Source of the DNA: Bacteroidota bacterium
Lineage (GTDB): Bacteria; CLD3; SB21
Length of the DNA: 64,000 bases
Assembly: GCA_037445875.1 (NCBI GenBank)
Contig: JBBIJR010000001.1
Location: 4,429 to 68,428 of the forward strand
Direction of reading: 5' to 3'
Positions within the stretch are counted from its first letter, which is position 1; every line of letters begins with the position of its first letter. Positions 3,220 to 61,257 of the stretch are shown piece by piece. The position numbers and the translations under genes were made by a program. Below the pieces are notes generated by a model. It saw only the letters and a program-made list of their open reading frames with translations, was not told the DNA's origin and searched no databases.

Positions 3220-3894
3220 ATGCGACTGCTGCTGATCGAAGATGACCGTAAGGTGGCCTCCTTCATCGTCAAGGGCCTCACGGAGTCGGGATACGTTGTG
3301 GACCCGGTCCACGACGGGGTCAAAGGCCTCGAGGCCGCGGAAGCCGAGGTGTACGACCTGGTGATCATCGACTGGATGTTGCCGGGTATGAACGGCCTCG
3401 ACGTTTGCCGACGCATTCGGGCATTCGCCCCGCACCTTCCGATCCTGTTCCTGACGGCCCGCGAGTCCGTACCGGATCGCGTGTCGGGCCTCGAAGCGGG
3501 AGCCGACGATTATCTGTGCAAGCCGTTTGCGTTTCTAGAACTGCTCGCCCGGATACGCGCCCTGCTTCGGCGCGGTTCAAGAATGGCCGAGGAACTGCGG
3601 ACCGGCGATCTGCTTATGAACGTCCATGAACGGAAGGTCACGCGGGGCGGACGAATCGTCGATCTCTCCAACAAGGAATTTGCGGTCCTGGAATATCTGC
3701 TGAGGAACAAGAACCGGCTGGTCACGCGTGCGACACTGACCGAACACGTGTGGAACGTGGATTTTGACCGGGGGACCAATCTGATCGACGTATATATCAA
3801 CTACCTGCGGAAAAAACTCGACGACCGCAAAGACAGTCCGATGATCCGCACGGTTCGCGGTGGCGGATACATGCTGGTCGAGGAGAACGCGTGA
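3220..3894 (+). CDS. Two-component response regulator, OmpR/winged-helix family
   Basis: MRLLLIEDDRKVASFIVKGL...DLVIIDWMLPGMNGLDVC receiver domain with a C-terminal winged-helix trans_reg_C domain (TRATLTEHVWNVDFD...IRTVRGGGY). Divergent from the upstream headgroup operon; 4-nt overlap with the downstream kinase. Confidence 0.85.
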   Translation: MRLLLIEDDRKVASFIVKGLTESGYVVDPVHDGVKGLEAAEAEVYDLVIIDWMLPGMNGLDVCRRIRAFAPHLPILFLTARESVPDRVSGLEAGADDYLCKPFAFLELLARIRALLRRGSRMAEELRTGDLLMNVHERKVTRGGRIVDLSNKEFAVLEYLLRNKNRLVTRATLTEHVWNVDFDRGTNLIDVYINYLRKKLDDRKDSPMIRTVRGGGYMLVEENA

Positions 3895-5300
3895 GCCTGC
3901 GGTACCGAACGCGCCTGATGCTCGCCTTCGTACTGCTGGGCCTCTTCATTGCGGTGTCGAGCTTTCTTGTGTATTACACGGTTTTCCGCGCCCAGCTCAC
4001 TCGTGCGCTGAGCAAGGAACTGCTCATCGAGGCGGAGGATTTTGCGGAGGACGTTGTCGTACGGGGAGACACGCTGGCGCTGCGGGCGGGCATCGAGTGG
4101 AATCACATCACGCATACGCACGTTTCCGACTACGCGCGGTTCGTGGAGATCGTGGACGGGCGATTTCGTACGATGCGCAAGACGGCCAACCTCGGATCGC
4201 GATCGCTGACCGATTTCTACGCTTTCGGACCGACGGCCGTGCCGGTAACGGTTAAATTCAGGCTGGATACGATGCGTGTGCGCTGCGCGGTCCTGCCTAT
4301 TGTGTCGGGCCAGCGCGCAGCGGGTTACGTTCTCGCCGCCGGCAGCACGCTACCCACTCGGCAGTACCTGCAGTTGTTCGAAAGCATCATGATCGGGTCG
4401 TTCATCCTCACGGGATGCATGGGGCTCCTGCTCTCATACCTACTGGCCGCCCGTATTACCCGCCCGCTCAAGCAGATCCGGGCCGCCGCGAAGAAGATGG
4501 ACCTTCAGACCCTCGGCCGCATCGGACCGCTCAAGGGCGGTGTCGAGGTCGAGCGCCTCGCCGACACCCTCAACGGCCTCTTCGAGCGCATCGAACGGTC
4601 CTTTCAGCAGATCAACGACTTTTCCTCCAACGTCTCTCACGAACTCCGCACGCCGCTGACCATCCTTAGAGGCAACATCGAAGTCGCGCTGGCCCGCGAA
4701 CGAACGCCGGAGGAGTACGTCCGCGTGTTGTCCGACCTGCTCGACGAAACCATCCACATCATTCGTCTGGTGGACAACATGCTGCTGCTTGCGCGCGCCG
4801 ACTCTGCGCCGCTTCGCATCGAACGGTTGCCCGTTGAGCTGGGCGGCCTCTGCCGGGAATTTCAGCGGGACTGGGAAACGCTCTGCGCCATGCGCGGACA
4901 AACCTTCGAATACCTCGTTCACGCCCCGGTCCGCGTTTCCGTCGACAGAAACCTGATCTACCAGTTGCTGCTCAACCTGATCGCCAACGCGTCGAAGTAT
5001 TCACCTGAGGGAAAGCACGTCACCTTGAGCGTCGATCGCGTCGCGTACAACGGAAGTCCGGTGGGCGTCCTTACGGTGACCGACCGGGGGATCGGCATCC
5101 CTCCAGCGGACCAACCTCGCGTGTTCGAGCGGTTCTATCGCGTGAACAAGGACCGTTCGCGCGAAACGGGGGGGACGGGCCTCGGTCTTTCCATCTGCAA
5201 GATGATCGTCGAACTGCACGAAGGCACGATCGACCTGACGAGTCGACCGGGAGATGGAACGACCGTGACCGTTCGCATTCCGGCGTCCAACAAATCTTGA
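3891..5300 (+). CDS. Sensor histidine kinase (HAMP-HisKA-HATPase_c), CusS/BaeS-like
   Basis: N-terminal TM helix, periplasmic domain, second TM, H-box SHELRTPLT, and G-boxes DRGIGIP / GGTGLGLSI. Confidence 0.85.
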   Translation: MSLRYRTRLMLAFVLLGLFIAVSSFLVYYTVFRAQLTRALSKELLIEAEDFAEDVVVRGDTLALRAGIEWNHITHTHVSDYARFVEIVDGRFRTMRKTANLGSRSLTDFYAFGPTAVPVTVKFRLDTMRVRCAVLPIVSGQRAAGYVLAAGSTLPTRQYLQLFESIMIGSFILTGCMGLLLSYLLAARITRPLKQIRAAAKKMDLQTLGRIGPLKGGVEVERLADTLNGLFERIERSFQQINDFSSNVSHELRTPLTILRGNIEVALARERTPEEYVRVLSDLLDETIHIIRLVDNMLLLARADSAPLRIERLPVELGGLCREFQRDWETLCAMRGQTFEYLVHAPVRVSVDRNLIYQLLLNLIANASKYSPEGKHVTLSVDRVAYNGSPVGVLTVTDRGIGIPPADQPRVFERFYRVNKDRSRETGGTGLGLSICKMIVELHEGTIDLTSRPGDGTTVTVRIPASNKS

Positions 5301-5340: not shown

Positions 5341-6360
5341 TCAGGGCACAGCGTGCTCCAGCCGATAGAGTTTCACGGTTTTGTCGTAGCTCGCGCTCGC
5401 CAGCCATCGGCCGTCCGGGCTGAACGCCACCGAATAAACGTCGTTCCGGTGGTCGGAGAGGGTCTGTATGAGGGCGCCGTCCTGTACGTGCCACAGACGG
5501 ACCGTTTCGCCATTGTCACCGAATTCCCCGAAGAAGTTTTCGACGATTTCGCCAAGCCACGATTTGTTTCTGCCGCCGCTCGCCAGCCATTGTCCGTCCG
5601 GGCTGAAGGCGACGGAATAGATACACTCGGAACCTCCCGACAACGTGGTTTCTTCTGAACCGTCGTTGACGCACCAGATTTTCACGGTCTTGTCGTCGCT
5701 TCCGCTCGCAATCCTTTTTCCATCCGGGCTGAACGCGATCGATACGATCGCTTCGGAATGTCCCTTCAATGTCCTTTCGAGTGAACCGTCGTTTACGCGC
5801 CAGAGTTTGATCGTCCGGTCGTAGCTGCCGCTGGCCAGTCGTCGTCCGTCGGGACTGAATCGGACCGACCAGACGGTGAGGCCGTGTCCGACAAGGGTGT
5901 GCATGACGGTACCGTTCCTTGCGCTCCAGACCTTCACCGTTTTGTCGTTGCTTCCGCTCGCTATCCACCGGCCGTCGGGACTGAACGTGACCGACCACAC
6001 GGTTTCCAGATGTCCCGTGAGCGACCGAACGACCTGGCCGTCGCTCACGCGCCATATAAGGACGGACCCGTCGTAACTGCCGCCGGCCGTATACCGGCCG
6101 TCCGGACTCACCGCCACCGAGGTCAGCCCATCCGTGTAGCGCAGAGTTCTCTGAAGGGTCCCGTCACGCACGCGCCATATCCTGACGCAGCTATCCACGC
6201 CGGCGCTGGCACACCATTCACCGTCCGGACTGAAGGCGACCGCCCACAAGGGACCGGTGTGACCGTACAGCGTCGCGTGCTGACGTGCAATCAACGGCGA
6301 CCCCTCTTGCGCAACGACCAGACCGCAAAAACTGAAAAGCAACATCAGAGGACGAACCAT
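5341..6360 (-). CDS. Secreted WD40-repeat beta-propeller protein
   Basis: Signal peptide MVRPLMLLFSFCGLVVAQ followed by at least seven WD40 repeats (GH...SVAFSPDG...ASGS.D.T.K.W). Start chosen at the signal-peptide Met; ORF track start is 6444. Confidence 0.75.
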   Translation of the reverse strand: MVRPLMLLFSFCGLVVAQEGSPLIARQHATLYGHTGPLWAVAFSPDGEWCASAGVDSCVRIWRVRDGTLQRTLRYTDGLTSVAVSPDGRYTAGGSYDGSVLIWRVSDGQVVRSLTGHLETVWSVTFSPDGRWIASGSNDKTVKVWSARNGTVMHTLVGHGLTVWSVRFSPDGRRLASGSYDRTIKLWRVNDGSLERTLKGHSEAIVSIAFSPDGKRIASGSDDKTVKIWCVNDGSEETTLSGGSECIYSVAFSPDGQWLASGGRNKSWLGEIVENFFGEFGDNGETVRLWHVQDGALIQTLSDHRNDVYSVAFSPDGRWLASASYDKTVKLYRLEHAVP

Positions 6361-6838
6361 TCGGACGTGGCCTCCCATTATTACTAAAGGCAGCGGGGAG
6401 GGTTTATTATTCGGTTCCAAGTGCCTGTTCCATTTCGAGACCATTAATATCTTGAGTCCGTAGAGCGTTGCTTACGATATCGGGGCGAGGAAGTTTCATC
6501 AGATGGACAGCGGCGATTTTTTCCGGTCCGGGGTGAAAAAAAACTTGCTCCGTTGGGCACCCGCGGTTATGTTACTATTGAGGCGCGAAATAGTTTACGC
6601 ATCGCTCCAGCATTTGCAAGAAATGACTCCTCGAGATGATCGGGAAATGATCAGCGACTTCGTTTTTTTGGTGGCCTTGGAAAAACCGCCGAAGAAGACC
6701 AGCCTTCGCGCCTTAGATATCAGCGGAGAACGTGGAACACTCTGGAATCCAACGACTGGACTTGAAACCTACGGAGCTGTCCACCAGTAAGCGAACTCTG
6801 GTTCCGGCGTTTTTTCCACAGCCTTGATTTTTCTTTTC

Positions 6839-30520: not shown

Positions 30521-32569
30521 ATGTTTCGCATCAACATCATAGCCGGCGCGGCGATGTGGGTCCTTGCCTCAACGGTCCCTGTCGAAGCGCAGTATTCCCT
30601 GCAATCGGCGTTCCCCAATTTGTCCGCGTTCACGAGACCGATTGAATTGGTTCATGCCGGAGACGGCACCAATCGATTTTTCCTGGTCGAGCAGGACGGA
30701 CGAATCTGGGTGTTCGAGAACAGCGCGTCGACCATGATACGCCGGCTGTTCCTCGACCTCAGCGATTCGGTCTCCCAGGGCGGCAGCGAGACGGGTTTGC
30801 TGGGGCTCGCCTTTCATCCGGATTATGAGAACAACGGGTACTTCTACGTGAACTACACCCGCACCGCCGGATCGCTGAAAAGCTACATCACCCGTTTTCA
30901 AGTCAGTTCATCCAATCCCGATTCGGCGGACGAGAGCAGCGGTCTGATCCTGATCGTGCAGAACCAGCCCTATTCGAACCACAACGGCGGCAAGGTCGCC
31001 TTTGGTCTCGATGGGTACCTGTACATCGCCCTGGGCGACGGCGGCAGCAGCGGCGATCCGCAGGGCAACGGCCAGAACCGCTCCACGATCCTAGGCAAGA
31101 TTCTGCGCATCGACGTCGACGACACTTCCGGCGGCCGCAACTATGCCATTCCGCCGACGAACCCGTACTATCAGAACACCGAGGGATTCCGCGAGGAGAT
31201 CTATTCGTACGGCATGCGCAACCCATGGAAATTCAGCTTCGATCCTCTGACGGGCCGCCTGTGGTGCGCGGACGTGGGACAAAGCAGCCGCGAAGAAGTC
31301 GATATCATCGACAACGGAGGCAACTACGGTTGGAACAAGATGGAGGGCTTTCTTTGTTATCCCAGTTCCTCGTGCGACACGGCGGGGCACGGTTTTCTGC
31401 GGCCGGTCTGGGATTATCCTCGGTCGCAGGGTCTTTCGGTGACGGGCGGTTACGTCTATCGCGGAACGGCCATACCGAACCTGGTACACAAGTACGTGTA
31501 CGGCGACTACGGGAGCGGCCGCATCTGGGCCCTCTCATTCAACGGGACGTCGTTCACCAATACGGAACTTCTCGACTCGCCTTACTCGATCAGTTCGTTT
31601 GGCGTCGACACGGCGGGCACAATCTATATTGTTTCGTACGGCACGGGCGTGATCTATAAGCTGACGGGCTCTTCGAGCGGGCTTACACTCCTCTCGCCGA
31701 ACGACGGTGAATCCTACGATCCCGGGGGCCAACTCGATATTCAGTGGCTCGCGACCGGACCGGCCAATATCGATTTGTTCTTCAAATCCGCTCCCGGCGC
31801 TGCGTGGGACACCATAGCCGCGAACGTGAATGCGGCCGATGGTTCGTACAGCTGGACGGTCCCGTCGTACGCGACGAACAAAGCGCGGATCCGCGCGTCG
31901 GAGAGCGGCGGCGCCTTGACGGACAGCAGCGATGGGTATTTTACAATTCGTCTCGCGTTGATCGCCGCATCGCGTTCGTCAATTGATTTGGACACCGTGT
32001 TCACTTCGGATATCGGGCTCGATACGCTGACGATCTGGAATCCGGGTACGGCGGAACTCGTGATCGACAGCCTACGTACCCGGACGGCGGTGTTTACGGC
32101 GACTCGAGATAGCTTTACTCTCGCCGCGTCTTCGTCCGATACGATTTCGGTAGTGTGTTCCTCATCCCAGTTGGGAGAATTCACCGACACGTTGACGATT
32201 TTCCATCGAGGCGACGGACCTTCGCTCGAGATTCCTCTGCACGTCGTATTCGTGCAGAATCCCAATTCGATCGGCGGCGGCACAAAGCCGCTCAAGTTCG
32301 TCCTGTATCCGAATCGCCCGAATCCCTTTAACAATTCCACAGTCATCAGTTACCAATTATCAGGGAATACAAGAGCCGTTCTGCGGATTTACAACCTGCT
32401 CGGGCAAGAGGTGCGCACACTGGTGAACGGGCAACAAACGGCCGGGCATCACGAAGTGTCGTGGGACGGACGGGACAATTTCGGCAGGACGGTCGCGTCG
32501 GGTGTGTATCTGTACCGGCTGGAAGCAGGCGGGCAGGTCAGGACGAAGAAGCTTGTTCTTTTGAAGTAG
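30521..32569 (+). CDS. PQQ-dependent sugar dehydrogenase paralog with a C-terminal Ser/Thr-rich Ig-like region and a T9SS C-terminal sorting domain
   Basis: Same GSDH hallmark segments (FLVEQDGRIWVF, GLLGLAFHPDYENNGYFYVNYT, HNGGKVAFGLDGYLYIALGDGG). The protein ends ...YPNRPNPFNNSTVISYQL...RIYNLLGQEVRTLVNG...GVYLYRLEAGGQVRTKKLVLLK (Por secretion tail). Confidence 0.75.
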   Translation: MFRINIIAGAAMWVLASTVPVEAQYSLQSAFPNLSAFTRPIELVHAGDGTNRFFLVEQDGRIWVFENSASTMIRRLFLDLSDSVSQGGSETGLLGLAFHPDYENNGYFYVNYTRTAGSLKSYITRFQVSSSNPDSADESSGLILIVQNQPYSNHNGGKVAFGLDGYLYIALGDGGSSGDPQGNGQNRSTILGKILRIDVDDTSGGRNYAIPPTNPYYQNTEGFREEIYSYGMRNPWKFSFDPLTGRLWCADVGQSSREEVDIIDNGGNYGWNKMEGFLCYPSSSCDTAGHGFLRPVWDYPRSQGLSVTGGYVYRGTAIPNLVHKYVYGDYGSGRIWALSFNGTSFTNTELLDSPYSISSFGVDTAGTIYIVSYGTGVIYKLTGSSSGLTLLSPNDGESYDPGGQLDIQWLATGPANIDLFFKSAPGAAWDTIAANVNAADGSYSWTVPSYATNKARIRASESGGALTDSSDGYFTIRLALIAASRSSIDLDTVFTSDIGLDTLTIWNPGTAELVIDSLRTRTAVFTATRDSFTLAASSSDTISVVCSSSQLGEFTDTLTIFHRGDGPSLEIPLHVVFVQNPNSIGGGTKPLKFVLYPNRPNPFNNSTVISYQLSGNTRAVLRIYNLLGQEVRTLVNGQQTAGHHEVSWDGRDNFGRTVASGVYLYRLEAGGQVRTKKLVLLK

Positions 32570-41077: not shown

Positions 41078-41518
41078 TCAATTCAGTCGGACGTCCACCT
41101 CGGCGTGCTCGACGGTGTAGCACGTGACACCCCCGCAGTAATCGTCCTCGTCCACCCCGATCCCATCCCCATCCACTGCGACCACCGTATCTCCGTCGGA
41201 ACGAATATACAGCGCAAGGACCGAGTAGTCCTGATCGGCGGGAAGGACATAGGTAGTGCCGGCCGTCGTCAACGTATCCATCAACACGAGGTCGCCGTTT
41301 TCAAAGTCGCCGCGGAAAACCCAGACCGGAACGGCCGGGTTGCGGCTGTTGATGCTCGAGCGAACGACCAACTGGCCCTCGGTCGGGCGGACATCCACGC
41401 AGTCGCCCGGAGCCGTTATGCAGTCCTCGTCACTCTGCCACCAGGATTCGCATCCGAAGAACACCGCAGCAGCAATCAACGCCGTCAGGACCCCCCCCTT
41501 CCATCTCCGATTCGTCAT
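41078..41518 (-). CDS. Hypothetical lipoprotein
   Basis: Signal peptide with lipobox (AAVFFGCESW); no recognisable family. Confidence 0.4.
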   Translation of the reverse strand: MTNRRWKGGVLTALIAAAVFFGCESWWQSDEDCITAPGDCVDVRPTEGQLVVRSSINSRNPAVPVWVFRGDFENGDLVLMDTLTTAGTTYVLPADQDYSVLALYIRSDGDTVVAVDGDGIGVDEDDYCGGVTCYTVEHAEVDVRLN

Positions 41519-42081
41519 AGCTGACCTCCGACCCCAACATAGACCCGATGGCCGTCCGATGTGCGAGCGTCGGAGTACTGATAGCCGAATCGCACGAACA
41601 CGTAGCGGCTGAATTTGTACGACAGGCCTCCCCGGACAAGCGGAGTGAGTCCCTCTTTCTTTTCGATCTTGTGGCCCAGGAATGTCCCTTCACCTGTGCC
41701 GCGGTAATCTACGAACGTCAGACCGGCGCCGGCCGTAAGAAAGACATCCCACCGGTTGTTGATCCAGAACTTCTTGTCAAGGCCTGCAGCCAGCAGGAAT
41801 CGGTATTCCTGCAGTTGAAAATAGAAGTGGCTGCCGGCCTGCACAAGCACGGCCCTGGCGTACGGCCGGGCGTGAAAGGTGCCGAACAGGCCGAGAAACC
41901 TCTCTCCGCTGATCGAGTAACGGTAGAAAGCGCCGATCGACACGTCGTGGTCGAGAAAAGGCACTTCCACCAGCGCGGAATGCCTGTGACGGCTCTCGTA
42001 CGTCATGGCCCCTCCGCGATCAAACTGTCCGAAGAGCATCGCCGGCTGCGTCAACGCAAGCAGTAACAACCATCTTTTCAT
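41515..42081 (-). CDS. Outer-membrane beta-barrel protein (OmpW/porin_2-like)
   Basis: Signal peptide MKRWLLLLALTQPAMLFGQ, alternating amphipathic strands, and a C-terminal aromatic-rich strand (YVGVGGQL). Confidence 0.45.
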   Translation of the reverse strand: MKRWLLLLALTQPAMLFGQFDRGGAMTYESRHRHSALVEVPFLDHDVSIGAFYRYSISGERFLGLFGTFHARPYARAVLVQAGSHFYFQLQEYRFLLAAGLDKKFWINNRWDVFLTAGAGLTFVDYRGTGEGTFLGHKIEKKEGLTPLVRGGLSYKFSRYVFVRFGYQYSDARTSDGHRVYVGVGGQL

Positions 42082-42156
42082 CGGAACTCCTGTTTCGTAC
42101 AAGGGCTCGGACGTTCGCTCGCCCTGTTATGGCCCATTCGTCCGGGGCGGCGGCAA

Positions 42157-47569: not shown

Positions 47570-49492
47570 TCATCGGACCAAGGCCATCTTTATCGTTCGC
47601 GTCTGTCGTCCGACCCGCAGGCGGCAGAAGTAAACCCCGCTGGCCAAGGCGCGGCCCGAACGGTCGCGACCGTCCCAGACCACGACGTGCGGTCCGGCAT
47701 TCTGGGTATCGCTTACGAGCGTCGAGACATGCTGTCCCAATGCGTTGTAGATGGACAGCGTCACAGGGCCGGCCATCGAAAGATCATAATGAATGCGCGT
47801 AGTGGGATTGAACGGATTCGGGAAATTCTGGTGCAGGCTGAAGAGCCAAAGGCGTCCCGTCTCGCGGCCGACGGACACTGGTTGGGTTGTCCACTCGGCT
47901 TGTTCCATCAAATGTCCATAGTGAGGTGGGAGGATGTCCTCGAGCGGCCGTCCGTAGCCGTCCAGGGTCCACGCTTTGGCATCGACGACCGCGCGGAACG
48001 CGCGGCGGTAGATCAGCCGGGCTCGGACGCGATAGGACTGCGATGAATCCGGGATCGAAAACGTATAGGTCGTGGTGTCGGAAGCGAACGGCGCAATTCG
48101 ATCGTCGGATACGATACCCGTCGCGTCGGTGTAAAAGACGGGGCTCGCGCCCGTGGAATCGTGATTGATTTTGCCGTAGAATTTACCGGGAAGACCGGCA
48201 TAATACCCAAGATGTGGATCGCCAACGCCGCCGAGCGGGTGAACGGTTTGAGATCCTGTGAACACGAGCGCCGTCGAATCCGTTTCACGCCACGCCTCAA
48301 CGAGCAGGATCATGTTGCGGAAAGTTACTCCGGTCGGCACATGGTGTCCCGTCGCATGGTTGGTGATGACCCCTTCCACGCGGAGCGTCGTATCGTCCTT
48401 TTCGACGTGAAGGTCCAGCGTGACGGCATTTTCCAGGTACCACGCCGTCGTACCTTCGAACCAATGACTGCGAATCGTCGATGAATCGCGAACGACCGGG
48501 TCAACCGTGCAGATTTGGGTCGCACCGTAGGAGGGCATATGGCACGTCACACACGTGGCGAAGTGGGCGGAGGACGTGTCGGCGTAGGGACTTGCCAGCC
48601 ATTCCAGGTACGTGGGCTCGGAAATGACACCGTTGGGTTCTTCAAAATCACCGTCATCGTCCGGATCGTTCTTGTCTTGATGACACGACGCGCATACGGC
48701 GGCCGTGAGCTGGGGTTGGTACGAAGGACGCATTAATGGCGCGGTAAAGTAACTGACGTCTCCGAGCACCCCATATTGGACCTGGCTAGAAACGGGAGAT
48801 GGTCGGGTAAAGGTGACGACGCCCGGATAGATGCCGGGAAAATTTGTTCTGGTTTCATCTATGTGCGCGATCTTGTGGCATACCTCGCAGGACACGCCGG
48901 CGAGCGCATTGGCGGAAGGACTGTTGAAATCGTCGAGCAGCGTGAAAGGATCGTCAATCCAGACCTGCGGCTGATGGCAGGACGCACATTCGGAATTTGG
49001 ATTGATGCTCGCATGGTGGGAGTCCCGTGTATAGACAAAACCTCCCATGCCGCCCGATGTGCCGGTACCGTTATAGATGTCGTACACCCATGTATTCAAC
49101 CCGGCATGAGCCATGGCGGATGTGGTCCATTGACTCCATTGATCCGGGTGACAGGCGCCGCACGTCGATGGATCCATGAACGTGTAGGAATTGTTGGTAT
49201 CCTGGGGGACACGTTCCATCACAAGGAGCAAACTGTCTTCAGGTGTGCTGGTTATGGCAGAGCCATTGTAAAAGGCCGGTTTGGCCCCGACGACAACAAG
49301 AGAGGTCCCGCTCGCCTCGGCCAGATGGAAATATCCGTTGGAGTCGGTGGTCGTTCGAATCGTGGTGGCCCGAACAGAAACCAAGGCGCCGACCACAGGG
49401 CTCATATTGCCCTCTTCTTTCAACCAGCCCGATACCTGGGCAAAAACCGACGATGGCCATAGAGTCAATACCAGCATGAACCGAAGACTCAT
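47570..49492 (-). CDS. T9SS-sorted multiheme (pentaheme) c-type cytochrome with N-terminal carboxypeptidase-regulatory-like domain
   Basis: Signal peptide MSLRFMLVLTLWPSSVFAQ. Five CxxCH motifs: CGACH, CASCH, CEVCH, CASCH, CVTCH. C-terminal Por secretion tail (NFPNPFNPTTRIHYDL...LSIYNALGQHVSTL...GVYFCRLRVGRQTRTIKMALVR). Confidence 0.75.
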   Translation of the reverse strand: MSLRFMLVLTLWPSSVFAQVSGWLKEEGNMSPVVGALVSVRATTIRTTTDSNGYFHLAEASGTSLVVVGAKPAFYNGSAITSTPEDSLLLVMERVPQDTNNSYTFMDPSTCGACHPDQWSQWTTSAMAHAGLNTWVYDIYNGTGTSGGMGGFVYTRDSHHASINPNSECASCHQPQVWIDDPFTLLDDFNSPSANALAGVSCEVCHKIAHIDETRTNFPGIYPGVVTFTRPSPVSSQVQYGVLGDVSYFTAPLMRPSYQPQLTAAVCASCHQDKNDPDDDGDFEEPNGVISEPTYLEWLASPYADTSSAHFATCVTCHMPSYGATQICTVDPVVRDSSTIRSHWFEGTTAWYLENAVTLDLHVEKDDTTLRVEGVITNHATGHHVPTGVTFRNMILLVEAWRETDSTALVFTGSQTVHPLGGVGDPHLGYYAGLPGKFYGKINHDSTGASPVFYTDATGIVSDDRIAPFASDTTTYTFSIPDSSQSYRVRARLIYRRAFRAVVDAKAWTLDGYGRPLEDILPPHYGHLMEQAEWTTQPVSVGRETGRLWLFSLHQNFPNPFNPTTRIHYDLSMAGPVTLSIYNALGQHVSTLVSDTQNAGPHVVVWDGRDRSGRALASGVYFCRLRVGRQTRTIKMALVR

Positions 49493-50477
49493 GTCAATCT
49501 CCCGGATTGGATGCCGATGCGTACAGTTTGCCCGTGGACGAATCGCCAATACGTCTGTACATCCCTATTCCTTCGGGCCGCACGTCATGGTTTCACATGG
49601 TTGATCGCTGCGTTACTCGTCCCAAAACCGATCCATCTCCTCGAGGGTCGAATCCTTCATTTCGCGGTTCATCTCCGGCTCGTTTTCTCTCCGCACACCG
49701 CCCGGAGGAAGGAAATGTCCGTCACGTCTTTCATGGGCGCGAGACACAGCGGAGTGTCGATGTCAATCGGGCCGATGCGCAAGGAATTAGCATACGGAAA
49801 TAGCGGCTGAATATCAACACGCACAGGGACGGATCGAGCAAAGAAAAGTCCCGGCCTTACGCCCGATGGCCTCATCAACCAGCGCCGGCCTTGTCAGGTT
49901 GCCCTTGCCTTTGCATGGGCCTTTTCCTATTTTCTCCCAAGGGAGAGATACCGGAAGAAACACGCAGCCGGTGTCCTCTTATCTTTGGATTCACACCGGC
50001 CGGTATCCTTCCACGGAATAGAGCCTTCTTCTTAAGGAGGCCCGTGATAAAACGGGTGAAAACATCGCTGGCGATCTGCTCGTCGTCTTGTCGTGTGATA
50101 TGGTTTCGATTGCCGCACGGTCAACGTGATCGAAGGAATCGTCGTTCGCGCGTATTCGTATCTTCCCGTCGCTTGCGCGCGCGTGCGCATCCAGGGCTAA
50201 AATGAATTCGTGCTGACCGTCACGGATGGGCACTTCACGCTCGTCACCGACCTCGACCATGGAACGAACGTCAAGATGACGGCAGGCAACACCCAACTGA
50301 CCGACCAGTGGCGCGAGTCCAAACACTCCCGGGCCGTCTCTAATCCGATATTCCTGCAGATCTACAACGGCACGGACGTCAACGGCACGTCAGGGGTGTA
50401 TCCGATCCTGTGGAGGAAACCGGCGACAACATCATCGTCAACAACAGCGACGGCCATTGCGCCTTTTATTTGCTGCC

Positions 50478-50630
50478 GCCGAACCGCGGCTCGCCGTGGC
50501 CGGACCGATGACCCTGGCGGCGTTCTGTTTGCACAAGAAGTTTGATAAACTCCGGAGCCTCAAACCGGCAAAGGAACCTTCGTGAAATTCGAATACTCCG
50601 AGTGGCGGGCGGATCTCATCAAGCAGAACA
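50478..50630. repeat. Direct repeat copy 2 (153 bp), covering the start of the intact vWA gene
   Basis: See copy 1. The flanks differ on both sides (47330-47338 vs 50469-50477; 47492 onward vs 50631 onward). Confidence 0.8.
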
Positions 50631-54028: not shown

Positions 54029-55792
54029 ATGAAAGCCCTCTGTGCGTTGTTTCTGCTGAGTGTGACGCCCATCTACGCCGCCTTCGGTCAATGGGTAACG
54101 GGCGGGCCCGATGGGGCCACGGTGAACTGTGTGACTATCGATGGTTCGAATGTCTTTGTGGGAACGGCCACCACCGGGCCATTTCGGTCCACGAATGGCG
54201 GCTCGGCCTGGACGGCCGCCAATCAAGGAATCGGAGACGTGTACGTCTACGCGATCCTGATAGACGGGAGCAACGCGTTCGCCGCTACCAACGACGGCGC
54301 GTATCTGTCCACCGATGACGGGGTAACCTGGATCGGAATCAACAACGGCCTGACCAACCAGTTCGTCAACGCCATCGCTCTCAGCGGTCCCGTGCTCTAT
54401 GCCGGAACCAACGCTGGCGTGTTCAAATCCACCGACAACGGTTCTAGTTGGACGGAAATCAACAACGGACTAACCAATACGTTGGTAAACGCCGTCGCCG
54501 TCACCGGTCCAACGGTCTTCGCAGGAACAAGCGGCGGCGCATTTATCTCCACCAATGAAGGATCCACGTGGGTGGAGTCGGACAGCGGGTTGACCGCCGT
54601 GTATGTGACGGCGTTCACCGTGAGCGGATCCAACGTCTACGCGGGAACGTTCGACGGCGGTGTCTTCGTTTCTACAAACGGCGGAATCAGTTGGAGTCCT
54701 TCCAACGCGGGACTGACGTCCACCAGCGTACTATCGTTGGCTTCCGAAGGATCTACCGTCGTGGCCGGGACGAGCACGAGCGGCGCCTTTCTATCGACGG
54801 ACAATGGCGCCAACTGGAATGCCATCACCAACGGACTCACAACGCCCGATGTTCGTGGTATCGACTTAAACGGCTCGACCCTCGTTGCCGGCACGACTGG
54901 AGGAGTGTTCGTTTCAACCAACGGAGGGTCTAGCTGGCAAGTCTCGAATGGCGGGCTGGTGGGCACGATTGTTTGGGCCATGGCAACCGAGGGTTCGACT
55001 CTATTCGTGGGCACGCAGGCGTATGGTATCTCCGTTTCTTCCAATGACGGATTGAGCTGGACGACAGCTAACAACGGTCTCTCGAGTCCCACCGTTCGGT
55101 CGTTCACCGTGAATCCATCCGGCGTCTTTGCCGGAACTCAAGATGCCGGTGTTTACCGTTCTACCGACGCCGGGGCAACCTGGTTTGCTGCCAACGGCGG
55201 AATCACAAGCTCCGGTGTCATCGCCCTGACGACCAGCGGCTCGAATCTGTTTGCCGGGTCGAACACGGGGGCTTATCGGTCCACCGATAACGGTGCCAAC
55301 TGGACCGCGGTCAACTCGGGATTAACGGATACATACGTCACTTCACTGCTCTCGACAGGATCAACCGTTCTGGCAGGAACCCAGAGCGGCGGAGTGTTCC
55401 GAACGACCGATAACGGCGCGAATTGGATCGATGCCAACAACGGGCTGACCTATCCGGCCATTCGCACGCTGGCGGTGAACGGTCCAATCGTGTACGTCGG
55501 AACGCAAGGCGGCATCTTCACGTCGACCGATGAGGGAGTTAGCTGGAATCTGCTTTCGTATGTGACGAACGTTAACAGCTTTGCTTTTTCAGGGACGGCC
55601 ATCCTGGCGGCTGTCGGCGGTTATGGAATGCTCCTCTCCACGGACGGCGGAGCCAATTGGGATTTCATAAACGAAGGTCTGCCGACTTGCGGGTCCTGTC
55701 CGCTGCGGTATTTTTGCACTTTCAGCAACAACGCGCGAAGAATCCGGCGCTTCGTATTACGGAATCATGGAACTGTCGGGAAATGTGGGTGA
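54029..55792 (+). CDS. Secreted BNR/Ycf48-like repeat beta-propeller protein
   Basis: aaggag RBS, signal peptide, and ~13 tandem ~40-aa repeats of the form (F.STD.G.SW...N.GLT...V..L...G....AGT..G). The ORF leaves this pattern after ...FINEGLPT and ends in non-protein-like sequence, suggesting a frame disruption near 55680-55767. Confidence 0.6.
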   Translation: MKALCALFLLSVTPIYAAFGQWVTGGPDGATVNCVTIDGSNVFVGTATTGPFRSTNGGSAWTAANQGIGDVYVYAILIDGSNAFAATNDGAYLSTDDGVTWIGINNGLTNQFVNAIALSGPVLYAGTNAGVFKSTDNGSSWTEINNGLTNTLVNAVAVTGPTVFAGTSGGAFISTNEGSTWVESDSGLTAVYVTAFTVSGSNVYAGTFDGGVFVSTNGGISWSPSNAGLTSTSVLSLASEGSTVVAGTSTSGAFLSTDNGANWNAITNGLTTPDVRGIDLNGSTLVAGTTGGVFVSTNGGSSWQVSNGGLVGTIVWAMATEGSTLFVGTQAYGISVSSNDGLSWTTANNGLSSPTVRSFTVNPSGVFAGTQDAGVYRSTDAGATWFAANGGITSSGVIALTTSGSNLFAGSNTGAYRSTDNGANWTAVNSGLTDTYVTSLLSTGSTVLAGTQSGGVFRTTDNGANWIDANNGLTYPAIRTLAVNGPIVYVGTQGGIFTSTDEGVSWNLLSYVTNVNSFAFSGTAILAAVGGYGMLLSTDGGANWDFINEGLPTCGSCPLRYFCTFSNNARRIRRFVLRNHGTVGKCG

Positions 55793-56057
55793 ACAGGTTG
55801 TTGACGCCTCCCCCGCATTGGCACGAACGTTCACGGGAAATCACGGCGACGGGGCACTCAGTACGAACGGCTATGCCAACCAATCCAACTGGGTCGGGCT
55901 TGCAAGCGGAGAGGTCACTTCGGCTGCGGGCTCAACGTTCCGCGGGGGATATTGGGTGACCTCCGCTAGCGGATTGGTGACCTCAGTCCGGGTTTCCTTT
56001 GAAGTAGGTTCGCGAACAGCACAATTCGGATTTCGCGGCGTAAGAACGGCGCCCTAG
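55668..56057 (+). pseudogene. C-terminal fragment of an FGE-sulfatase / C-type-lectin-fold (DUF323 or Fib_succ_major-like) domain
   Basis: Hand translation of frame 0 from 55668 gives ...GASYYGIMELSGNVGEQVVD...NWVGLASG...TFRGGYWVTSA...SVRVSFEVGSRTAQFGFRGVRTAP*. This matches the C-terminal half of FGE-like domains (YDMSGNVWEWV ... RGGSW ... GFRCV). The N-terminal half of the domain is absent. Confidence 0.45.
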
Positions 56058-56060
56058 TTC

Positions 56061-57945
56061 GTGCGCACGTCCGTGAAGGCTATCCGACCGGTCTGGATTT
56101 GGGCGATTGCGCTCCCGACGGTGGTCTGGATCGGACAGGATCTTCAGAGTCAAGTCCGATACGCGACTTCAGTTACTAGCTTCAGTTCCGAGTACAACGC
56201 TTCGCCCGGTAACTGGTCCGCTTACCAGACAGTCGGCGCGCCCAACACATACCCGTCCTATGGCGACCTCAGTACGGCCTGGGCCAGCCTGACCGCCGAC
56301 GGTCAGCGGGAGTTCCTCGAGTTGAGCTACGCCTTCCCTCCGCCTTCCCCGATCACAACCATTCGAATCTACGAGACCTTCAATCCGGGTGCGGTGGATA
56401 CCGTCTACGTGAAGAACCCGGGGACCGGACAGTGGGTGAAAGTGTGGGAAGGTACGGCCAGTCCGGCCCCCGCAGCGGCCAGGATCTTCACCGTGAATTT
56501 TCCGGTAACTGCTTTCAACGTGGGGCAGATCCGCATTGCTCTGAATTCTCCGGCCGTTGCCGGCTGGAACGAAATCGATGCCGTCGGAATCTCGAACGAT
56601 ACCGATCCCACGAAATATCACGGAGGCGCGTACGATGGACACGACGATATCATTGCATCTTTTTCCAACCTGGACGGCGTTTCCCCTGCATCGGCAAAAT
56701 TCCTGGGGGGGGTCGTTCGACGGCTTCTCGGAGGTATCGTCGGCGTTTGGCGCACTCGACGGGACAGCCCCGTCCGCCGCGAAGTTCATCGGTGGATCCT
56801 ATGACGGACAGGACGAGGAAGTGGGCGCTTTTGCGTCGCTGGACGGTATTCCGCCCAACATCGTCAAATTCCGCGGTGGTTCCCATGACGGCCATGCGCT
56901 GCTCTCCGGCAGTCTGTCGGGCTTCAATGGCGGCACTCCTTCCGCTTCCAAATTCCACGGCGGCTCCTACGATGGCCATTCTCAGATCGCCTCTCGCGGG
57001 CTGGGATTCAACGGCGACACGGCAAGTCTGGCCAAGTTCTACGGAGGACCTCATGACGGCTTCGCCCATCTGGCTTCTGCGTTCGGAAATCTGATGGGTG
57101 TGTCGCCGACCCTGTCGAAGTACGTGGGTGGCTACGATGACGGATACACATTGTCTACTTCCGGACTGACGTACTTTGCAGGACCACCCGATCCGTCCAA
57201 GTACCTCGGCGGCATCGATGACGGCTACGCGCAGTTGGTCGGCCCGTTCTCCAATTTCGCCGGCCTGTCACCCTCGATAACCAAGTACGCGGGTGGTCCG
57301 GGGGACGGCTACGGGTTCGAATTCTCCGAAATCGACATTTCGCTGCCGGTGGAACTGGCGTCCTTTCAAGTAGCGGTCATACCCGGGCGCGGCGTCGTGA
57401 GACTCCAATGGCGCACGGAATCGGAAATCGACAACGCATACTGGTTGGTCATGCGGCGAACGGCTTCGGACTCTCTCCGCACCGTCACCCAACTTCGCGG
57501 CATGGGCACGAAAGCGTCGTCAACCGAATACGAGTGGACGGACCGTGAACTGGAACTCGACACACTGTATTACTACCGCCTGGCTGATGTTTCGTATAAC
57601 GGCTCGATCACGCACCATGACGAACTGGCCGTACGTGTGGACGCTCCGGACGAGGTAGAGCTGTTCGGCAACTTCCCCAATCCATTCAATCCCGAAACGT
57701 CCATCCGGTTTGCCCTTCCGCGGAAAGCCGAAGTCTATCTCGTTGTTTACAATTCTCTGGGCCAGCAGGTGAAGGTCCTCTCGAGTCGGAGCTTCTCCGC
57801 AGGGTTCCATACCCTTCGCTGGGACGGCACCAACGAGTCCGGCCGATTCGTGTCGAGCGGTGTGTACCTCTATCGCTTGCTGATCCGATTGTCCGATCCC
57901 CCACAGCGCCGGATCCGCACCGGCCGTATGATGCTCGTACGTTGA
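56061..57945 (+). CDS. T9SS-sorted surface protein with an N-terminal discoidin-like domain and ~9 tandem 28-aa K(F/Y)xGGxxDG repeats, interrupted by a +1 frameshift at a poly-G tract
   Basis: ORFs 56061..56804 and 56557..57945 carry the same repeat family in two frames (KYHGGAYDGHDD..., KFIGGSYDGQDE..., KFRGGSHDGHAL..., KFHGGSYDGHSQ...). The frames meet exactly at the G8 run 56705-56712; 7 or 10 G would restore one ORF. C-terminal Por secretion tail (GNFPNPFNPETSIRFAL...VVYNSLGQQVKVL...GVYLYRL). Confidence 0.65.
56705..56712 (+). repeat. Homopolymeric G8 tract inside a coding repeat
   Basis: Read directly as ttcctgggggggg tcg. It encodes the Gly-Gly of a repeat unit and is the site of the frame change. 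Confidence 0.9.
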
Positions 57946-57948
57946 AAT

Positions 57949-57988
57949 GTCAAGAATTATCTCTTGTTTTCTTGATTGTATTCTTGAC
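57949..57988. promoter_or_regulatory. Inverted repeat gtcaagaat-N22-attcttgac overlapping a TTGACA hexamer upstream of the RHH antitoxin gene
   Basis: Perfect 9-bp arms at 57949-57957 and 57980-57988. TTGACA at 57984-57989, ~50 nt upstream of the antitoxin ATG (58039). Confidence 0.35.
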
Positions 57989-58038
57989 AAGGCTACGTTC
58001 TTTTCTTACCTTTCCCAAGAGTCAAACGCGGCCGCTGC

Positions 58039-58300
58039 CATGCCACGACGCACCTACAAGAAGATCAAGATCGGAACTATGCTGGGGAAAAAGGCCCTGG
58101 AAAAACTTAAGGAACAGGCTGTCCGCGAAGGCCGCTCCATGAGTGCCGTGCTTGAGACCGCGATTCTAAGTTACGAGTCGACGGAGCAGACAGCCAGGGT
58201 ATTGAGCCGACAGGCCCTGGAGCGGTTTCTCGATCTTCGCTTCAACCTCTCCCTCGCAGATTGGAAGACGATCCTCGAGGAAGATTTCTACGAGCAATGA
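58039..58300 (+). CDS. Ribbon-helix-helix (CopG/VapB-like) antitoxin
   Basis: MPRRTYKKIKIGTMLGKKALEKLKEQAVREGRSMSAVLETAI is a typical RHH beta-strand plus two helices. The stop TGA overlaps the toxin ATG (ATGA at 58297-58300). Confidence 0.6.
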
Positions 58301-58797
58301 TGCTGGATGACATTCGAGACGGCCAGCTCGTCTTGATTGACGCCAACATCGTGCTTTATGCGATAAGCCGGGCATCCGGTCAGTGCGCCGCTTTCTTGCG
58401 CCGAGTAGCCAATCGTGACGTTGTGGGGACCATACCCGTTATCCAGTGGGCTGAAATCATGCATCGTTTGATGATTGCAGAGGCCAGAGATCATGCCTGG
58501 ATATCGGGCACAAACCCGGCCAGCCAACTATCCAGCCAGCCCCATCGCATTCGAGCGCTCAGAAGATATGCTGAGGCTGTAAGAGACCTGATGGCGTCTG
58601 GAATACAGGTGGAGCCCGTCGAGAGGGATGACCTCTTGTCTGCCCTGCACCTTCAGAAGCAGTGGGGTCTTATGACGAACGACGCGCTCCTCGTGGCCGT
58701 GGCTGAACGCATGCGGGTCGTTGCAGTGGCCAGCGCCGATCGCCGACTGGCTGACATTGATTTTCTACGAGTGTACGCCCCGAGCGACTTGGCCTAA
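58297..58797 (+). CDS. vapC: PIN-domain ribonuclease toxin (VapC-like)
   Basis: LIDANIVLYA (first acidic residue), ...MTNDALLVAVAERM... and ADRRLADI (PIN acidic residues). 4-nt start/stop overlap with the antitoxin. Confidence 0.75.
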   Translation: MMLDDIRDGQLVLIDANIVLYAISRASGQCAAFLRRVANRDVVGTIPVIQWAEIMHRLMIAEARDHAWISGTNPASQLSSQPHRIRALRRYAEAVRDLMASGIQVEPVERDDLLSALHLQKQWGLMTNDALLVAVAERMRVVAVASADRRLADIDFLRVYAPSDLA

Positions 58798-60205: not shown

Positions 60206-61257
60206 ATGGGGAAAGCGATCGCCCTACTATTTCTGCTGACGGCGTCCGCCGTTGCACAGTATGACGGATCCTATTCCGAGGTCTTCTTCGGCCGCCAGCC
60301 GAGTGCCCGCGTCGAAGCGATGGGCCGGGGTTCAGTCGCTTTGTTCGCCGACGGTTTCTCATCCTTCTACAATCCGGCTCTGCTCTCCGAAGTCGGGAAG
60401 GCGACTGTGAGCCTGAGCGACGCCCGGCCCTATTACCTGCTCGACAAGGCCCTATACGTTCGTTGGGGGATCCTGGCGCGTTCGACCGCGTGTGGTTCTG
60501 GGAACAAGTCTTTTTCACTTCGACGCCGGCCCCTCACGCGACATACTCGATTCGACCGGTAACGTAATCGGAATCGCTGACCCCTGGAACACCACAGTGA
60601 CCCTGTCCGCAACGACAACGCTTTCGAAGAATCTTTCCATGGGTGTTTCCCTGAATCGGCTGACCGATCACGTGAGAGATGGCTCGGACGCTCTCTCCTC
60701 CGCTGAGGCAAACGCCTACACTATGGACATTGGTCTGCTGTTTGGTCGTACATTCGGCGACCATATCGTGCGGGTGGGGCTCGCCTGCCTTAACGTTTTC
60801 TCGGAGCGATTTGACTATGGGTCGTGGACAGCCGACTGGGATATGCCGCGGCCGCTCCGCGTCGGCATCAGTCTGGAACGACTATCGATTCCACGGCGAA
60901 CTCCGCACACTGAGCACGACGGTCCACGTACAGTACGAGGATGTGACCAACTACCGGTACTTCACATCGTGGGGCGGTGGTGTAGAAGCAAACATCATGG
61001 AAGTGGTAGCGCTTCGATACGGATACTATCGATTCACCGTGGACGATCTTGGAAGCCGCACAAACAAGAACCAGATGGGAAAGAACACGTTTGGAGTAGG
61101 GGTCTGCGTCCCACTCAATCGTTTCTCATCTGTTCCCTTGAGTGTTGGTTTCGATGCAGTCGCCATGCAACAGCCCAGCGCAGCGACGACATTCGACGAC
61201 TGGGACAATTTCAAGGTCTACAGCGTGACGCTGCGCTGGATCGCCGGGAGTCATTGA
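60206..61257 (+). pseudogene. PorV/FadL-like outer-membrane beta-barrel gene disrupted by two frameshifts
   Basis: N-terminal signal peptide and the family motif ARVEAMGRGSVALFADGFSSFYNPALL in frame 2 (60170..60562). The middle beta-strands are in frame 0 (60492 up to ~60890). The C-terminal third is in frame 1 (60679..61257, ...YSVTLRWIAGSH). Junctions lie near 60470-60500 and 60870-60900. Confidence 0.5.

Follow-up and report, generated by a model that had tools for sequence, protein, structure and literature searches.

A probable T9SS surface protein with an undescribed 28-residue repeat, its gene split at a run of eight G, and the linkage of its family to an FGE-fold protein family

The 64,000-nucleotide stretch of Bacteroidota DNA analysed here (hereafter the window; contig JBBIJR010000001.1, positions 4,429 to 68,428 of the forward strand) contains at 56061-57945 a gene for a probable type IX secretion system (T9SS) surface protein. 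The gene is interrupted by a run of eight G and its product is built around a tandem array of 28-residue units that match no described family. Judged by gene order and sequence similarity, this gene takes the last place in a cassette of three that is conserved in T9SS-bearing bacteria of the FCB (Fibrobacteres, Chlorobi, Bacteroidetes) group. It follows genes for a beta-propeller T9SS cargo protein and for a secreted protein of ~530 aa with an FGE-sulfatase (C-type-lectin-like) fold, and itself encodes T9SS cargo with a [KQ][YF]xGGxxDG motif. Our preferred reading, to which we give about an even chance (probability roughly 0.5), is that the G run arose by a real and recent mutation that inactivated the gene while the cluster was decaying, and is no regulatory switch.

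The G run at 56705-56712 is exactly eight G long, as the first-pass annotation of this DNA had stated with correct coordinates, though the literal string given there had nine letters. Two overlapping open reading frames (ORFs) lie in different frames of the forward strand at this point. ORF A (56061-56804, 247 aa) starts with GTG, carries the start of the gene in frame up to the G run and ends in a 33-codon out-of-frame tail. ORF B is open from 56557, holds the in-frame continuation of the gene (56707-57945) and has its stop codon at 57943-57945; in public records it is represented by a call of 436 aa from an internal ATG (P0001). The tract is one G beyond an in-frame CTG GGG GGG TCG, located at codons 215-217 within the second repeat unit. 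Removal of one G results in a continuous product of 627 aa that runs across both ORFs and reads ...SPASAKFLGGSFDGFSEV... over the join, which is a perfect repeat unit with the register kept exactly. A tract of ten G likewise brings the frame back and yields 628 aa, with one Gly more. The earlier proposal of a single gene split by the tract, with either seven or ten G giving one continuous frame, is thereby confirmed.

An intact homologue (P0002, 717 aa) has 46% identity over 95% of the query and the same architecture, with 12 repeat units, which means that the single-ORF form exists in nature. No other alleles of the gene were found in a metagenome scan with residues 30-440, and a scan of species-representative genome contigs with the joined protein gave sorting-domain matches only and no close relatives.

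From its N-terminus the joined protein has a probable signal peptide, a PAPPA/discoidin-like domain and eight full and one partial 28-residue units, and it closes with an FN3-like domain that precedes a T9SS C-terminal sorting domain; all are encoded on the forward strand. The probable Sec signal peptide (56061-56147; MRTSVKAIRPVWIWAIALPTVVWIGQDLQ) was read by eye from its basic N-terminus and the hydrophobic stretch that follows, and its position is as in P0002. The putative PAPPA-type (PF25900) discoidin-like domain (56154-56600, residues ~32-180) shows 69% identity to the corresponding region of P0002. Precomputed PF25900 matches exist for P0002 and more than 60 further homologues, five of which also match the discoidin family PF00754. 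The name PAPPA derives from the scarf domain of pappalysin-1 (PMC9780223). The N-terminal domain of the window protein itself has no match, PF00754 included, in the local copy of Pfam, which is without PF25900 and leaves P0002 unmatched too; a PDB profile search with this domain reached only sorting-domain relatives, among them the T9SS C-terminal domain 8glj and PG93, and not PAPP-A.

The repeat array (56613-57366) is followed by the FN3-like or Ig-like domain (57343-57681), which begins with LPVELASF, is modelled by AlphaFold2 with a predicted local distance difference test score (pLDDT) of ~90, matches tandem FN3 domains in Foldseek and has a weak match to the Ig-like Kre9_KNH family. The last domain (57682-57942) is a T9SS type A sorting domain of the FlgD_ig-like kind. 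It scores 41.9 bits with PF13860 FlgD_ig (cut-off 27) and a borderline 23.4 bits with TIGR04183 (cut-off 23); with PF18962 it reaches just 14.3 bits, against a cut-off of 27, and P0002 behaves alike. In an AlphaFold2 model of the in-frame part (56707-57942) the last ~200 residues form two Ig-like domains with pLDDT ~90. Foldseek matches this C-terminal model best to the C-terminal region of PorU (6za2, E = 5.7e-7) and also to FN3 tandems. The FN3-like region and secretion tail recognised at first reading are thus corroborated by profile models, AlphaFold2 and Foldseek alike. Other, intact cargo genes with C-terminal sorting domains and a broken gene of the PorV/PorQ family are present in the window; no core gene of the T9SS was noticed there.

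In the joined protein the repeat has its K[FY]xGG anchors at residues 185, 213, 241, 269, 297, 325, 353, 380 and 408, so that successive anchors lie 28, 28, 28, 28, 28, 28, 27 and 28 residues apart. In the ninth unit the beginning of the following domain (DISLPVELASF) takes the place of the second half, so the array of about nine copies that had been described at first comprises eight full units and one partial unit, with nine anchors. The units follow the pattern K[FY]xGGxxDG[FYH]x9LxGx6, with consensus KYxGGSYDGFsxxxxxxxxLxGxxxxxx, in which K1, G4, D8 and G9 are invariant. Given these invariant positions and the recurrence of the unit in unrelated proteins, the 28-residue periodicity is far beyond chance. 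Tandem Repeats Finder detected no repeats at the DNA level in the gene. Since the units lack DNA similarity the array must be old, and a recent repeat expansion is ruled out.

The unit had been put forward as belonging to no described family, and this was upheld by each of the resources consulted. No Pfam or NCBIfam model matched the repeat at E <= 1, among them the models for RTX (HemolysinCabind) and YD repeats, beta-roll and YD repeats having been named as examples of known families that might account for it; the motif is GGxxDG and the period 28. Nothing is annotated over the repeats of relatives in the newer, precomputed Pfam. A PDB sequence search with the repeat profile gave a chance match only (E = 0.58), and a literature search found no paper containing GGSYDG, GGSFDG or GGxxDG.

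A search with a two-unit profile among 1.84 billion representatives identified 282 at E <= 1e-3, of which 69 at E <= 1e-10, and a further homologue search with a 56-column repeat profile returned a single fragment. The repeat family is real but rare. Many relatives are ~400 aa long and have exactly 7 x 28 aa; in some the array precedes an FN3-like and a sorting domain, in others a different domain that has a dockerin-like tail. Copy numbers of 6, 7, 9 and 12 units are encountered among relatives, as are other repeat periods, of 22-32 aa. A subgroup with seven units lacks the T9SS sorting domain (P0109-P0111, P0113, P0114, P0077 and P0116); its members end in a conserved domain of ~130 aa and a dockerin-like DxNxDGxxD tail (PF00404 on P0114). 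The core also occurs in other spacings. Giant proteins (P0121 of 4857 aa, P0125, P0128, P0130 and P0137) show KYxGGxxDG every 113-117 aa, alternating with Ig/PKD-like domains, and P0121 has 27 copies of it. In a further group, of proteins 800-2600 aa in length, the core is present exactly three times at intervals of ~210 aa.

Structure prediction of the array gave a divided result. For the seven-unit array of relative P0112, with units 3-9 of the window protein included in the alignment, AlphaFold2 returned a solenoid-like model with a mean pLDDT of 90 and a predicted template modelling score (pTM) of 0.86, in which every unit has strands of 11, 4 and 3 residues. The window array itself shows the same strand periodicity at a pLDDT of 50-66 only. 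Foldseek found nothing significant in the PDB for the P0112 model (best E = 0.6, TM-scores 0.1-0.4); the weak matches are nearly all beta-helices or solenoids, such as tapirin, GlmU/LpxD, SufBD, ice-binding proteins, pectate lyase, CsgA/FapC and RTX. On these models the array is probably a new beta-solenoid with one coil per unit. What counts against this is that the model is that of a relative, that only two of the five AlphaFold2 models are confident and that a significant PDB match is missing.

The cassette is intact in the locus of P0002 (L001). There the gene order is a BNR/sortilin beta-propeller of 687 aa with a sorting domain, an FGE-sulfatase-fold protein of 520 aa (hereafter FGE-like) and P0002, and the stop of the FGE-like gene overlaps the start of P0002. 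An FGE-like gene of 520-541 aa is found immediately upstream on the same strand for all five repeat proteins that were looked up, on seven contigs, and it is absent beside PAPPA-domain proteins without repeats. The FGE-like proteins are orthologous, with 42-55% mutual identity. Their kinship with true FGE and with GldK is distant. Their match to PF03781 is weak, and among PDB entries they match FGE structures at E ~4e-5, by their N-terminal half only, and TvpA at 0.04. With GldK they score 1.3e-6 and 28 bits against a cut-off of 350, so they are not PorK/GldK orthologues. Conserved among them is an additional N-terminal domain of ~150 aa, and an evident lipoprotein signal is lacking. Catalytic FGEs carry a conserved pair of active-site cysteines; the C-terminal region that is common to five aligned FGE-like sequences contains no invariant Cys.

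A metagenome scan with the FGE-like alignment identified at least 523 relatives. We kept 80 loci (L056-L135); in 60 of them the sequence extends 600 bp or more beyond the FGE-like gene. In 31 of these 60 the next ORF has the motif [FYHW]xGGxx[DR]G within its first 120 residues, whereas the remaining ORFs of these loci give a count of 9 in 269 (odds ratio 31, p = 4e-19); a looser motif is found in 39 of the 60. A typical next ORF has a signal peptide ending in ...AQ, followed by YTGGSYDGY or YxGGNGRGD. Most of the downstream genes code for secreted proteins with a mature N-terminus of the pattern (A)QYxGGxxDG[YF] or QYxGGNGRGD. The motif starts at around residues 21-28 and is preceded by Q in 20 of the 31. 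Minimal partners, of ~230-280 aa, consist of the motif, an LPVEL... FN3-like domain and a T9SS sorting domain. Because the ORFs next to FGE-like genes bear the motif N-terminally, the 28-residue repeat of the window is taken as a tandem iteration of an N-terminal element that distinguishes the partners of this FGE-fold family and that most relatives have just once, immediately behind the signal peptide. In L064, L076, L094 and L095 the place of the motif-bearing gene is occupied by a second FGE-like paralogue.

Three of the 80 loci (L099, L112 and L114) have an ORF resembling a reverse transcriptase directly 3' of the FGE-like gene, together with a template repeat. When the template is compared with the last ~150 bp of the FGE-like gene, 18 of 20, 15 of 15 and 24 of 26 mismatches fall on template adenines. 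The variable and template repeats are located at 6329-6481 and 8301-8453 in L112, at 3574-3726 and 5546-5698 in L099, and at ~6389-6532 and 8367-8510 in L114. The FGE-like orthologues of these three loci are variable proteins of diversity-generating retroelements (DGRs). A DGR in the window was considered and rejected, as neither a repeat of 55686-56060 nor a reverse transcriptase motif is present within it. The best PDB match of the FGE-like remnant in the window is TvpA (2y3c), an FGE-fold DGR variable protein, and the FGE fold of PorK is a repurposed, non-catalytic one (PMC12421860). Together with the DGR-target orthologues, this suggests a role in binding, and not in catalysis, for the FGE-like neighbour.

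In the window all three genes of the cassette are damaged. The first is represented by the 5' 80% of a BNR/sortilin propeller T9SS cargo gene (54029-55678, forward strand; Pfam Sortilin-Vps10 and BNR), which tblastn aligns to residues 1-551 of the 687-aa L001 protein with 47% identity. Residues 552-687 of the homologue, sorting domain included, are missing and the ORF continues out of frame to 55792. The tblastn matches of the first and second gene abut at 55678 and 55686, with a change from frame 2 to frame 3, which places a deletion junction at 55679-55685 on the same strand. Compared with L001 some 1.6 kb are missing: the propeller has lost its sorting domain and the FGE-like gene three quarters of its length. 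The join leaves the two upstream genes fused out of frame. What is left of the FGE-like gene is a 3' remnant (55686-56057, forward strand) of 127 codons, corresponding to residues 394-520 of 520, that aligns with four orthologues, has 56% identity to the L001 protein and has its stop 3 nt before the start codon of the repeat-protein gene. 

A further pair of lesions lies 2.3 kb downstream of the repeat-protein gene, where an outer-membrane protein gene of the PorV/PorQ family (60206-61257, forward strand) is spread over three reading frames. The conceptual join of these frames matches NF033709 PorV_fam with E = 1.8e-20 in a single stretch (model positions 10-298 of 326). The frame changes are near 60450 and 60875 and are not located at long homopolymers, the longest nearby runs being 3-5 nt. 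A scan for frame changes by codon usage identified abnormal same-strand changes at 56.65, 60.53 and 60.86 kb only. A candidate at 8.03 kb turned out to be an ordinary gene boundary, and the overlapping ORF pairs at 23.7-25.4, 27.8-29.3, 33.0-35.1 and 41.1-42.1 kb, which were considered as frameshifts, are separate intact genes.

The reading of gene decay is preferred because the cassette partners are destroyed, the PorV-like gene is broken, runs of eight G occur at chance frequency and the homologue lacks the tract. If it is correct, a deletion of ~1.6 kb would have cost gene 1 its tail and gene 2 three quarters of its length, and gene 3 would have gained one G in a chance CTG-GGG-GGG run. The intact protein encoded with seven G would be exported by Sec, recognised by the T9SS by means of its C-terminal Ig-like sorting domain and displayed at the surface, as in the established T9SS pathway. 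It would then present a PAPPA/discoidin-like jelly-roll head on a rigid beta-solenoid stalk of nine 28-residue coils with an FN3-like spacer. In the state with eight G, ORF A would yield a periplasmic fragment of 247 aa without sorting domain and ORF B would lack a signal peptide, so that neither product can follow this route of export and display. On this reading the cassette in this genome is defunct.

Several observations weigh against this reading. But for its one surplus G the gene is undamaged: no further stop interrupts it, all repeat invariants are kept and the C-terminal domains are modelled confidently. A lesion in so well preserved a gene would be either very young or unreal. The surplus G, the deletion and the frameshifts are features of the assembled sequence, and four lesions in 7 kb of a contig from an uncultured genome could equally mark a mis-assembled, low-coverage or strain-mixed stretch. 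Moreover, L001, the reference for the deletion, is only ~47-56% identical at the protein level, such that the difference may be a lineage-specific rearrangement in place of a recent deletion.

The explanation that survives best beside decay is an assembly or sequencing artefact, in which the real genome has seven G and an intact gene for 627 aa, and the extra G, perhaps with the deletion and the frameshifts, consists of consensus errors. We regard this as possible, if rather unlikely. Homopolymers are a classic site of indel errors, no second lesion exists in the 1.9 kb of this otherwise perfectly conserved gene, and the sequence occurs in public records only once, on a single NCBI contig that lacks independent corroboration; the local clustering of the lesions is what a low-coverage or strain-mixed region would give. 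Against this, the frameshifts in the PorV-like gene and the clean 1.6-kb deletion lie off long homopolymers. The remaining ~54 kb of the window contains no frameshift candidates: the sole other G or C run of at least eight, C8 at 41491-41498, is in frame and so is a G7 run at 5168. Since the ORF pairs elsewhere are intact, generally low assembly quality is rejected as the sole explanation. Random indels, furthermore, would not hit T9SS-related genes alone and spare the toxin-antitoxin and metabolic genes between them. We infer that the lesions are biological rather than artefactual.

Other bacteria are well known to switch surface-protein genes by means of poly-G or poly-C tracts, and the first-pass annotation leaned towards slipped-strand phase variation at the tract. 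Such a contingency switch would be on with seven or ten G and off with eight or nine. As in the poly-G/C contingency genes of Campylobacter, Neisseria and Haemophilus, a G homopolymer that sets the frame lies inside the coding region of a surface-exposed protein, and one tract length, seven G, gives a perfect ORF in repeat register. Unlike in those genes the tract is neither enriched nor conserved, and the surrounding cassette is destroyed. One run of at least eight G was observed in the window where 1.25-2.3 are expected by chance, hence there is no over-representation. The run itself is the Leu-Gly-Gly sequence CTG-GGG-GGG plus one G; GGG accounts for 17% of the Gly codons, so that seven G can result from chance codon choice at one of the nine Gly-Gly pairs in the gene, the remaining eight of which avoid GGG-GGG. 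The gene of P0002 has no homopolymer of six or longer. In addition, the tract is positioned one third into the gene, away from the start. The PorV-like gene is twice frameshifted. Finally, with the upstream partners destroyed, an ON state would be without its cassette, and a switch makes little sense because the cassette is already wrecked. The phase-variation proposal is therefore not sustained and appears improbable to us.

Production of one protein by programmed +1 ribosomal frameshifting or by transcriptional slippage on the G run is scarcely credible: GGG-G would let the P-site tRNA-Gly re-pair in the +1 frame, which makes a low background restoration plausible, but the next zero-frame codon is GUC and not a stop, no stimulatory element is evident in the sequence as read (no search was aimed at one), the homologue is encoded in a single frame without the tract, and the family has no conserved recoding site.

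A suggestion can be made about the function of the pairing. The [KQ][YF]xGGxxDG element and the FGE/C-type-lectin-fold protein of ~530 aa might constitute an undescribed two-component surface system of T9SS-bearing bacteria, in which the motif serves as a docking or recognition element. This is a tentative idea to which we attach a low likelihood. If true, the motif would form one coil at the mature N-terminus where it occurs singly and a beta-solenoid of several coils where it is iterated, and the lectin-fold protein would be hyperdiversified by DGRs in some lineages. Arrays such as that of the window would be multivalent scaffolds that display multiple copies of a variable binding protein at the cell surface, in the way of a scaffoldin with cohesins and dockerins. 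That the motif is instead a modification site of the lectin-fold protein would be less likely than docking.

Among known systems a close parallel is found in the leucine-rich repeat (LRR) surface proteins of Flavobacterium psychrophilum, which are T9SS type A cargo with ectodomains of solenoid repeats (PMC10392669). The window protein shares with these a signal peptide, a variable number of short repeats that form a solenoid (predicted in the present case) and a type IX sorting domain, as well as presumed surface display with a binding role and a copy number that varies between relatives. It differs in that its repeat is 28 aa long and all-beta with a GG..DG turn, that its units are not hypervariable cassettes and that its family is linked to an FGE-fold gene, a link not described for LRR loci. 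The predicted fold would share with RTX beta-rolls, ice-binding proteins, tapirins and CsgA/FapC its turns rich in glycine and containing Asp, a period of one coil to each repeat and the stacking of parallel strands. Unlike RTX repeats of 9 or 18 residues, the coil of this family would have 28 residues with one 11-residue strand. The FGE-like neighbour resembles PorK/GldK (PMC12421860) and Treponema denticola TvpA (2y3c) in its FGE-sulfatase fold, and TvpA also in that orthologues in three loci have a 3' DGR variable region. It is unlike either in being specifically paired with motif-bearing cargo genes, and this pairing was not found described. New here are an undescribed repeat, of a predicted solenoid type, in T9SS cargo and a new gene linkage.

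Directly 3' of the repeat-protein gene is an apparently intact toxin-antitoxin pair of a ribbon-helix-helix and a PIN-domain protein (57947-58797, forward strand), and the toxin-antitoxin and metabolic genes between the lesions are intact. Intact T9SS cargo genes encode a multihaem c-type cytochrome with a sorting domain (47570-49549, reverse strand) and a glucose/sorbosone dehydrogenase with Ig-like and sorting domains (30521-32569, forward strand), the latter having a JGI metagenome relative (P0266) with at least 90% identity. The C8 run at 41491-41498, G8 on the minus strand, falls in a small ORF of that strand (41078-41518), at its codons 7-9 (K-G-G). This ORF has an N-terminus like a signal peptide or transmembrane segment and is ATGA-coupled to an ORF resembling an outer-membrane beta-barrel protein (41515-42102). 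The ~1 kb at 49565-50580 contains no ORF of 120 aa or longer and no Rfam or tRNA match, and Rfam and tRNA scans of the window as a whole found no RNA genes.

For this genome the result means that one surface-protein cassette is apparently dying, or is mis-assembled, and that the automatic call of 436 aa is a fragment and should not be taken as a real product. For the family its reach is wider. Structure models predict the 28-residue unit to be a new kind of beta-solenoid coil that recurs across uncultured bacteria of the FCB group, and a new domain model would serve several hundred proteins now labelled 'hypothetical' or 'T9SS sorting domain-containing'. The tight link to an FGE-fold family with at least 523 metagenome relatives, some members of which are DGR targets, makes the gene pairing a concrete hypothesis for how T9SS cargo and lectin-fold binding proteins may act together.

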